From Thermoplasmata archaeon (lineage in GTDB: Archaea; Thermoplasmatota; E2; DHVEG-1), in NCBI GenBank assembly GCA_020054495.1, contig JAHWGK010000002.1, forward strand, positions 16,418 through 80,417: a stretch of 64,000 nucleotides of DNA, given 5' to 3'. A program made the translations under genes and the position numbers. The notes under the pieces were generated by a model. That model did no database searches and was not told where the DNA came from. It saw nothing but the letters and a program-made list of their open reading frames with translations. Position 1 is the first letter of the stretch. Every line of letters begins with the position of its first letter. Of the stretch, positions 39,110 through 40,293 are shown one piece after another.

Positions 39110-40171
39110 TCATTTCTTTTTAATTTTTACTAACCTTTTTCCAATTTCTTTAGCTTTTTTTAACTCATTTTGATCGGGAACATAGTTAATATTAATGCTA
39201 TCTAAAGGAAAATCCCAAGATACTTCCTTTAGAATTTTTTCTATTTCACTAACCGCCTGGCCGCCCCAACCATAGGATCCAAAAACTAAACCTATTCGAT
39301 TTTTAGGTTTAAGACCTTTGAGATATGTTAGGAAACCACCCATTGACGGAAGCATTGAATTATTAAACGTAGGAGATCCTATCAGTATATATTTCGAAGT
39401 AATTACATCTGTTATTACATCTGAAATATGGGATGTTTTTAGATCCCTAATAGCAACTGGAATACCTGCTTCTTCGATACCTTCTCGAAGTGAATAAGCT
39501 ATTTTTTCTGTTGAACCCCACATAGAATCGTAAACAATCAATGCTTTATTTTCAGTTTCATATCGGGCCCATTTCGTATATTCTTTGAGGATTTGTGGAA
39601 TCAATGAACGCCATATTATTCCATGGCTTGGTGCAATCATATCGATGTCAAGTCCAGAAATAGCTTCAAGAGCCTTTTCTACTTGACGACCATAAGGCAT
39701 TACGATATTTGCATAATACTTCGCCGCCTCCTCCTTCAAAATCCCCCATTCAATTTCATCATCAAAGCGCCCTGAACTTGCTATATGTTGTCCAAAAGCA
39801 TCATTTGGAAGAAGAAGTTTATCACTGGGAATGTATGTTACCATGGAATCTGGCCAATGAACCATTGGTATTTCAACAAAATGAAGTGTTCTTTTACCTA
39901 TATTGAGTGTATCACCAGATTTTACTACTTTAAAGTTCAAGTCTTTTTTGTAGTGTCTTTTAAGTCCTTTTTCTCCTCTTGTTGAAGTTATAACTGTTGC
40001 ATTTGGACAGAATTCAAGAATTTTTAGTATAGAACCAGAGTGATCCATTTCAACATGGTTTGATATAATATAATCTATCTTTGAAGGATCTGCGATTTCT
40101 TTAATTCTAGTAAGCATTTCATCAAAAAGATAGTGTTTTACTGTATCTACTAATGTTATTTTTTTATCCAT
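39110..40171 (-). CDS. fprA: flavodiiron protein (FprA-type; MBL-like diiron domain + flavodoxin domain)
   Basis: NHVEMDHSG diiron motif, flavodoxin domain ([14 protein letters not shown]). The conserved FDP N-terminus continues in frame upstream to 40288 without ATG/GTG/TTG (see findings). Confidence 0.8.
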   Translation of the reverse strand: [353 protein letters not shown]

Positions 40172-40293
40172 AATTAGGTAAGCATTATACGTTGTACCAC
40201 GGTTTGTTGAGTATCCATGGAAATTACGAATATTCCAGTCAATACCACCGACCCAATAAATATCCTGCTTTATGTCAACCTTATTCAGCTAAA

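Follow-up and report, generated by a model that had tools for sequence, protein, structure and literature searches.

Where does translation of fprA begin when the conserved N-terminus of its product is encoded upstream of every usable canonical initiation codon? The question is raised by a 64,000-nt stretch of DNA from a Thermoplasmata archaeon (contig JAHWGK010000002.1, positions 16,418 to 80,417; hereafter the window), in which fprA, the gene for a class A flavodiiron protein (an enzyme that detoxifies oxygen or nitric oxide; rubredoxin:oxygen or NO oxidoreductase), directly follows hrb, the gene for a fusion of flavin reductase and rubredoxin, on the minus strand. We propose, with a probability of about three in four, that the correct fprA gene spans positions 40288–39110 (392 codons plus the stop codon) and is translated from a CTG at 40288–40286. 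What we observe directly is the sequence anatomy of the junction, its conservation, the codon-level selection on the gene and the pattern of Shine-Dalgarno (SD) sequences.

The hrb-fprA junction and the N-terminus of FprA

Read on the minus strand, the hrb stop TGA (40296–40294) is followed by TT, by a TAG in the fprA frame (40291–40289) and by the CTG, which thus lies 5 nt past the end of hrb (GAA AAG GAG TGA / TT / TAG / CTG AAT AAG GTT GAC ATA AAG CAG GAT ATT TAT TGG GTC GGT GGT). From this CTG, the first codon after the TAG, the frame is open until a TGA at 39112–39110. The first in-frame ATG, GTG or TTG downstream of the TAG is an ATG at 40171–40169 (codon 40), so that 38 conserved flavodiiron codons (codons 2–39, 40285–40172), encoding the N-terminal β-strands of the metallo-β-lactamase-like domain, are left without a canonical start. 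A sequence-only reading had drawn attention to this conserved stretch, free of ATG, GTG and TTG and beginning after an in-frame TAG 2 nt from the hrb stop, and all of its coordinates were confirmed. The deposited annotation starts at codon 40: searching the protein collection returned a 353-residue NCBI protein (P0007) that is 100% identical to the product begun at this ATG. An in-frame GTG also overlaps the hrb stop (GTGA), in the context GTG-ATT-TAG (40297–40289); it is the start chosen by gene callers in relatives, and in the window it is rendered unusable by the TAG two codons on. With the GTG frame closed, the CTG is the sole start in the window that is compatible with the conserved N-terminus.

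The upstream codons were claimed to be genuine flavodiiron sequence, and profile comparisons bear this out. The 392-codon product aligned with Moorella FprA (PDB 1ycf) over residues 4–386 (phmmer, E = 3e-123), with query residue 4 on residue 4 of the structure, and NCBIfam flavorubredoxin models matched from profile position 3. Pfam assigned ODP/Lactamase_B to residues 34–223 and Flavodoxin_1 to residues 251–381, the metallo-β-lactamase-like plus flavodoxin architecture of class A proteins of ~400 residues. The diiron ligand positions, which we take from our knowledge of the 1ycf-type site, are all present (H78-V-E80-M-D82-H83, H144, D163 and H222) and invariant in a 27-sequence alignment (A1). 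The N-terminal strand motif YWVG..DW..R.FHG...RGTTYNAYL is retained in the product only when the start lies at the CTG or close to it.

Starting at codon 40 was further expected to delete an essential part of the metallo-β-lactamase-like domain. An AlphaFold (AF2) model built with 27 homologues (mean predicted local distance difference test score, 77.7) agreed with this expectation, placing four β-strands upstream of or at Met40 (residues 10–12, 15–17, 31–34 and 37–41), so that Met40 itself is predicted to sit within a strand of the β-lactamase-like sandwich. Codons 2–39 showed the same pattern of change as the remainder of fprA, with saturated synonymous differences (proportion pS, 0.7–0.8) and few nonsynonymous ones (pN, 0.06–0.15); even the comparison of the window with its nearest relatives showed saturation at synonymous sites (pS, 0.6–0.8). 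At the level of sequence comparison, this indicates that codons 2–39 are translated and under purifying selection equal to that on the rest of the gene. In the clade around the window, the residue at the Met40 position was I in 25, M in 12, V in 6 and K in 4 members, and the ATG at codon 40 reads as an ordinary internal methionine rather than the true start. The suggestion that fprA might be a decaying gene finds no support in its intact frame of 392 codons, which has neither a frameshift nor an internal stop, or in a ratio of nonsynonymous to synonymous substitution rates (dN/dS) of ~0.05–0.1; a very recent loss of function seems improbable to us.

The start column and Shine-Dalgarno sequences across orthologs

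Full-length orthologous loci were gathered from genomic and metagenomic contigs, 157 in total, and their alignment was used to identify in each the codon homologous to the window CTG, termed the start column (column 0). The column reads ATG in 83 loci, CTG in 31, TTG in 30 and GTG in 8; one-codon offsets beside a canonical start account for the other five. Within a 51-member clade around the window (~72% identity or more), the column held CTG in 29 members, TTG in 16 and ATG in 6, and CTT, CTA, CTC or TTA occurred in none of the 51. By comparison, at 15 leucine positions conserved inside these genes all six leucine codons were mixed, with CTG the rarest (5.8%), and among 128 invariant-residue columns with degenerate codons, none was fixed for a single codon in the 29 CTG genes. 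Column 0 behaves like an initiation codon: with synonymous sites saturated, selection on the amino acid alone could not have kept a leucine codon in the NTG form.

The codon also appears to have changed repeatedly. A parsimony count requires CTG to have been exchanged with other start codons at least 12 times on a simple neighbor-joining (NJ, a distance method) tree of loci that are not phylogenetically independent. The closest relatives of the window, at 91% amino-acid identity, carry either TTG (L162) or CTG (L164–166) in the start column, and the closest loci at 69–84% amino-acid identity are nearly all metagenome-assembled genomes labeled Thermoplasmatales or Thermoplasmata archaeon, including SG8-52 bins from estuarine sediment; an archaeal origin of the locus is thus most likely. 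Comparing the orthologous junctions, a check proposed by the sequence-only reading, thus revealed a shared CTG/TTG/ATG start column, and the architecture with a start at codon 40 was not conserved. Judged by these alignments, the arrangement is the conserved state of hrb-fprA operons in a clade of Thermoplasmatota (SG8-52 / MBG-D-like), with a start column that alternates between TTG, CTG and, occasionally, ATG. The comparison also brought out three features beyond that earlier reading, namely the archaeal origin, the conservation of CTG across the clade and the presence, in most relatives, of a rival in-frame GTG overlapping the hrb stop.

An extended SD sequence, AGGAGUGAUU (40301–40292), precedes the window CTG and combines the two final sense codons of hrb with the TGA stop and the two spacer bases. 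Its GGAG core ends 8 nt before the CTG. The same exact distance was found in 27 of the 29 CTG loci, all 27 of which contain GGAGTGAT, and a spacer of 5 nt between the hrb TGA and the CTG in 28 of the 29; TTG loci tolerate spacers of 5–7 nt, and ATG loci often lack the GGAG. To compare binding strengths, the 22 nt upstream of each start were folded against the conserved 16S tail GAUCACCUCCU, which was assumed and not read from this genome, because tRNA and Rfam scans of the 64-kb window found no RNA genes. The predicted duplex at the window CTG comprises 10 bp with one bulge and reaches −10.5 kcal/mol, compared with +0.5 kcal/mol at the ATG of codon 40, which thus has no SD, and −2.4 kcal/mol at the ATG of codon 58. 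Mean energies were −10.7 kcal/mol for CTG loci, −9.1 kcal/mol for TTG loci and −6.5 kcal/mol for ATG loci, the difference between CTG and TTG loci having a Mann-Whitney P value of 4e-5 that is not corrected for phylogeny. Across these loci, the weaker the start codon, the stronger the predicted SD. SDs at least as strong as −6 kcal/mol precede 27 of 51 large open reading frames (ORFs) in the window, which makes SD-led initiation the normal case in this genome. A non-canonical start had been among the explanations offered for the junction, and for the CTG at 40288–40286 the SD 8 nt upstream, the start column and the selection on the following codons all argue in its favor. RNA structure was considered as a reason for the conservation of the CTG and dropped, as no stable structure was found at the hrb-fprA junction (z = +1.1).

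Competing readings of the junction

The best surviving alternative places the true fprA start of the whole clade at the GTG overlapping the hrb stop, three codons upstream of column 0 (−3), with a product beginning M-I-K-L. The third codon of the window gene would then have changed from AAG or AGG to TAG, and the gene would be either recently silenced or leaky from the CTG. Gene callers have made this choice often: 85 of the 120 closest database proteins were called from the −3 GTG and begin M/V-I-K-L, and the closest relatives of the window read GTG ATT AAG CTG or GTG ATT AGG TTG. A parallel comes from a bacterial (Bacillota-like) subclade of FprA, whose start column holds ACG in L057 (L057:2023) and CTG in L148 (L148:1501). 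In both loci, a GTG lies in frame three codons upstream, inside GGGTGA/GGGGTGATT, and appears to be the true start, which implies a three-codon displacement of the start from one clade to another.

A number of points weigh against initiation at CTG. No stop interrupts the −3 frame (with TTG in place of GTG in L009) in 25 of the 29 CTG loci, and CTG co-occurs almost perfectly (28 of 29) with the 5-nt spacer that places the GTG in frame; given that hrb ends in GAG TGA, this spacer automatically sets the GTG in frame three codons before the CTG. Codon −2 has the form AT[T/A/C/G] in every case and would specify Ile or Met, in keeping with a coding role, and the GTG may be the main start in relatives, lost in the window by an A-to-T change (AAG to TAG). 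The GTGA overlap is, moreover, the classical geometry of termination-reinitiation, and archaeal gene pairs are most commonly coupled through overlaps of four nucleotides (PMC10666635). Where its efficiency has been measured, CUG initiates poorly, at 1–2% of AUG in E. coli reporters (bioRxiv 10.1101/063800), and a recent main review of archaeal initiation names only AUG, GUG and UUG, never CUG (PMC7531240). The shared ancestry of the loci compared and the assumed 16S tail belong on the same side of the balance.

Other observations nevertheless make a GTG start for the whole clade improbable. If the CTG were merely Leu4 of a longer product, it would be expected to drift, whereas only CTG, TTG or ATG occupy column 0 in 51 of 51 clade members despite saturated synonymous sites. 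Stops at codon −1 are present in the window (TAG), L109 (TAG) and L090 (TGA), which fall into three separate lineages on the NJ tree, and in L005 a 4-nt spacer puts the upstream GTG out of frame; all four genes are intact (390–396 codons) and under purifying selection, with dN/dS values of ~0.01–0.1 relative to sister sequences. Two further loci were dropped as CTG-only cases: L038 is ambiguous, having a GTG at codon 4, and L148 belongs to the bacterial clade in which the −3 GTG is probably the start. In 12 of the 16 TTG loci, the spacer leaves no in-frame canonical start upstream, so column 0 must be the start there. The −3 GTG, in addition, has no usable SD (mean, −1.9 kcal/mol), and the window gene bears none of the frameshifts or internal stops that silencing might leave. 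Taken across the clade, the alignments suggest that the GTG is not the sole or essential start, and relatives may use both GTG and CTG. For the window itself the question is moot, because the TAG closes the GTG frame.

It is very improbable that this TAG is instead read through or recoded, for example as pyrrolysine, downstream of a GTG start (M-I-X-L-N-K...). The GTG-ATT-TAG-CTG frame is continuous except for the TAG, and Methanomassiliicoccales, members of the same phylum, decode TAG as pyrrolysine. On the other hand, TAG ends 11 of 51 large ORFs in the window and hence serves as an ordinary stop, L090 has TGA rather than TAG at the same position, and the residues found there in relatives (K, R, Q, E, N, Y and T) are unconstrained. 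No genes for pyrrolysine use were seen within the 64 kb, a weak point given that span.

Equally far-fetched is the loss of a canonical start through faulty sequencing or assembly, or a functional short FprA begun at codon 40: the source is a metagenome-assembled genome and its annotation does start at this ATG, but a contig from a separate assembly (ENA, L081) matches the window at every one of 761 bp across the junction (100% identity; window 41007–40247), the same junction architecture recurs in ~30 other loci, GTG-ATT-TAG-CTG or GTG-ATT-TGA-CTG is found in other species (L109 and L090), which also contradicts the indel proposed earlier, and Met40 is a variable residue without an SD, lying inside a β-strand and preceded by codons under purifying selection. 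Two further candidates were rejected. An Hrb-FprA fusion by frameshifting would run into a TGA six codons before the CTG and the TAG directly before it, both in the fprA frame, and an ATT start at codon 20 with a GGTGGT-type SD would leave the conserved YWVGGIDW motif upstream.

Proposed initiation route, known parallels and genomic context

For initiation at the CTG, we infer the following route. The extended SD would position the small ribosomal subunit such that the P site falls on the CTG 8 nt after the GGAG, and the near-cognate CTG would be read by initiator Met-tRNA, yielding a protein that begins M-N-K-V-D-I-K. The unusual length of the SD would offset the weakness of the codon. With a gap of only 5 nt before the CTG, ribosomes that terminate at the hrb stop could probably re-initiate there, and the short distance described for termination-reinitiation pairs (PMC10666635) is found in the window as in 28 of 29 CTG loci; hrb and fprA are probably translationally coupled.

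CTG starts are established in bacteria, yet very rare. In E. coli, those of hda and yfjD were verified by start-codon mutagenesis (EcoGene 3.0, PMC3531124). As in these two genes, the CTG start of fprA is deduced from the conservation of upstream codons together with a ribosome-binding site, the annotated downstream canonical start appears to be wrong, and the CTG is presumably read by the initiator tRNA. Unlike them, fprA is archaeal and its evidence comparative, its CTG is kept or alternates with TTG across a whole clade, and it lies 5 nt past the stop of an upstream gene that harbors the SD. Evidence that CTG can begin translated ORFs in archaea comes from Methanosarcina mazei and Haloferax volcanii, in which a few CTG-started small ORFs were detected by ribosome profiling (Ribo-seq) or mass spectrometry (PMC11456600, PMC12482152). 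Those ORFs are small, mostly unconserved and experimentally found, whereas fprA encodes a conserved enzyme of 392 residues and is supported by comparison. With archaeal termination-reinitiation pairs (Huber et al., PMC6728339, PMC10666635), the hrb-fprA pair shares co-directional genes forming one functional unit, a short distance (+5 nt for the CTG, −4 nt for the GTG) and an SD inside the 3' end of the upstream gene. The documented cases have canonical starts, mostly in ATGA or GTGA overlaps, while the re-start codon of fprA would be CTG.

The gene pair itself has a counterpart in Moorella thermoacetica, which likewise combines a flavin-reductase/rubredoxin fusion with a class A flavodiiron protein; hrb and fprA are neighbors there. 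The solved chain of Moorella FprA (1ycf) aligns from its residue 4 and so has a normal N-terminus. The peculiarity of the window lies in the translation start only, not in the enzyme. On the sequence data, fprA is thus another near-cognate start with a strong SD in a tightly coupled operon and not a new mechanism. What sets it apart is that it concerns an archaeal, full-size and conserved enzyme and is kept across ~30 sampled lineages, which supports, by comparison, the view that archaea can stably retain CUG under selection as the start codon of such a protein. Together, the loci form a natural allelic series, varying in start codon (ATG, TTG or CTG), spacer length (4 to 7 nt) and the state of the −3 GTG frame (open or closed), in which compensation of a weak start by SD strength, spacing and termination-reinitiation could be studied.

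A more far-reaching reading, which we offer tentatively and consider rather unlikely as a whole, would join these elements. In a sediment clade of Thermoplasmatota, CUG would be a selected and stable start for a core redox enzyme, freely interchanging with UUG and backed by an extra-long SD as well as by a second, overlapping GTG start, and the junction, with its two starts and its dependence on coupling, would serve to set the ratio of Hrb to FprA. If CUG were indeed read across the clade, archaeal initiation (aIF1/aIF2 proofreading) would tolerate it there far better than in bacterial and model-archaeal systems.

The practical consequences concern annotation. Standard gene callers accept only ATG, GTG and TTG. 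The deposited FprA (P0007), cut to 353 residues, lacks four strands of the catalytic domain, and most orthologs are annotated from the overlapping GTG, which adds three residues that may not belong to the protein. Such errors pass to anyone expressing, modeling or counting these FprA proteins from metagenome-assembled genomes.

In annotated prokaryotic genomes, CTG typically accounts for roughly 0.1% of starts or less. In the loci compared here, its use as a start is likewise rare and not genome-wide, because the start columns of eight neighboring genes, examined in all loci, were essentially all canonical, with CTG only at hrb in L068 and L070. In L070, which belongs to another Thermoplasmatota lineage, the CTG at the hrb start column (L070:2273, plus strand) is preceded 4 nt upstream by the SD GGAGGGAG and eight codons upstream by an in-frame TAG, and no canonical start follows until codon 32, which falls within the conserved N-terminus. 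This hrb is a candidate for a second CTG-initiated gene in the phylum and a hint that tolerance of CUG is not specific to one gene. The hrb of L068 (L068:2275, plus strand) has CTG at the start column and GTG at codon 5. Within the window, a scan for CTG, ATT, ATA or ATC with an SD upstream of the first canonical start yielded a long extension only at fprA; the remaining matches adjoin a canonical start. Three large ORFs (9862–11850, plus strand; 54531–55682 and 13111–14661, minus strand) have a first canonical start that is far from the upstream stop, or that lacks an SD while an ATG with a much better SD follows 30–40 codons downstream. The window scan found no near-cognate candidate with an SD for them; their starts may need revision, or the ORFs may be leaderless.

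The genes around fprA follow an order common to relatives: ferredoxin, a PerR-like regulator of the Fur family, hrb, fprA, a 51-residue cysteine-rich ORF, two rubrerythrin-like genes and rubrerythrin. This gene content marks the cluster as an operon with which an anaerobic archaeon counters oxidative/nitrosative stress. All of the following features lie on the minus strand. The hrb gene (40294–40989), which ends AAG GAG TGA, encodes the flavin reductase-rubredoxin fusion known as high-molecular-weight rubredoxin, with Pfam domains Flavin_Reduct (residues 7–149, E = 3e-33) and Rubredoxin (residues 182–228, E = 1e-24) and an NCBIfam rubredoxin match (E = 1e-29); the protein is identical to one encoded on the ENA contig L081. 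Directly downstream of fprA and in the same operon, the cysteine-rich ORF (38921–39076) contains 11 cysteines (MCKSCGCKEADKPIQYECECSAEDCSCSIIEFDEEPKAAPYCCGVPMKRIK) and matches no Pfam or NCBIfam family. A homologous N-terminus with an ATG or GTG start occurs in 41 related loci, and the ORF is a called gene in L162 and L164. Three rubrerythrin-type genes (37233–38894; 178 and 163 residues and a 191-residue rubrerythrin) complete the oxidative-stress operon, as judged by an NCBIfam rubrerythrin match for 37233–37808 (E = 6e-88) and Pfam Rubrerythrin matches on the syntenic genes of L162.

The regulator gene (40979–41413; Pfam FUR, E = 3e-26) overlaps the start of hrb by 11 nt, in an order shared with L162, and its best NCBIfam match is PerR (E = 3e-31), below the cutoff of that model. 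Just upstream lie two copies of the near-palindrome GTAATTATTAC (41450–41440 and 41433–41423), and GTAA..ATTAC-like strings precede the regulator in relatives too; the pair may serve as a Fur/PerR operator through which the operon is autoregulated. The regulator ORF begins GTG GAT TAT TTG (41413–41402), and many relatives have GGT or GAT at the GTG column and TTG three codons on, which suggests that its true start may be the TTG at 41404–41402 rather than the GTG at 41413–41411.

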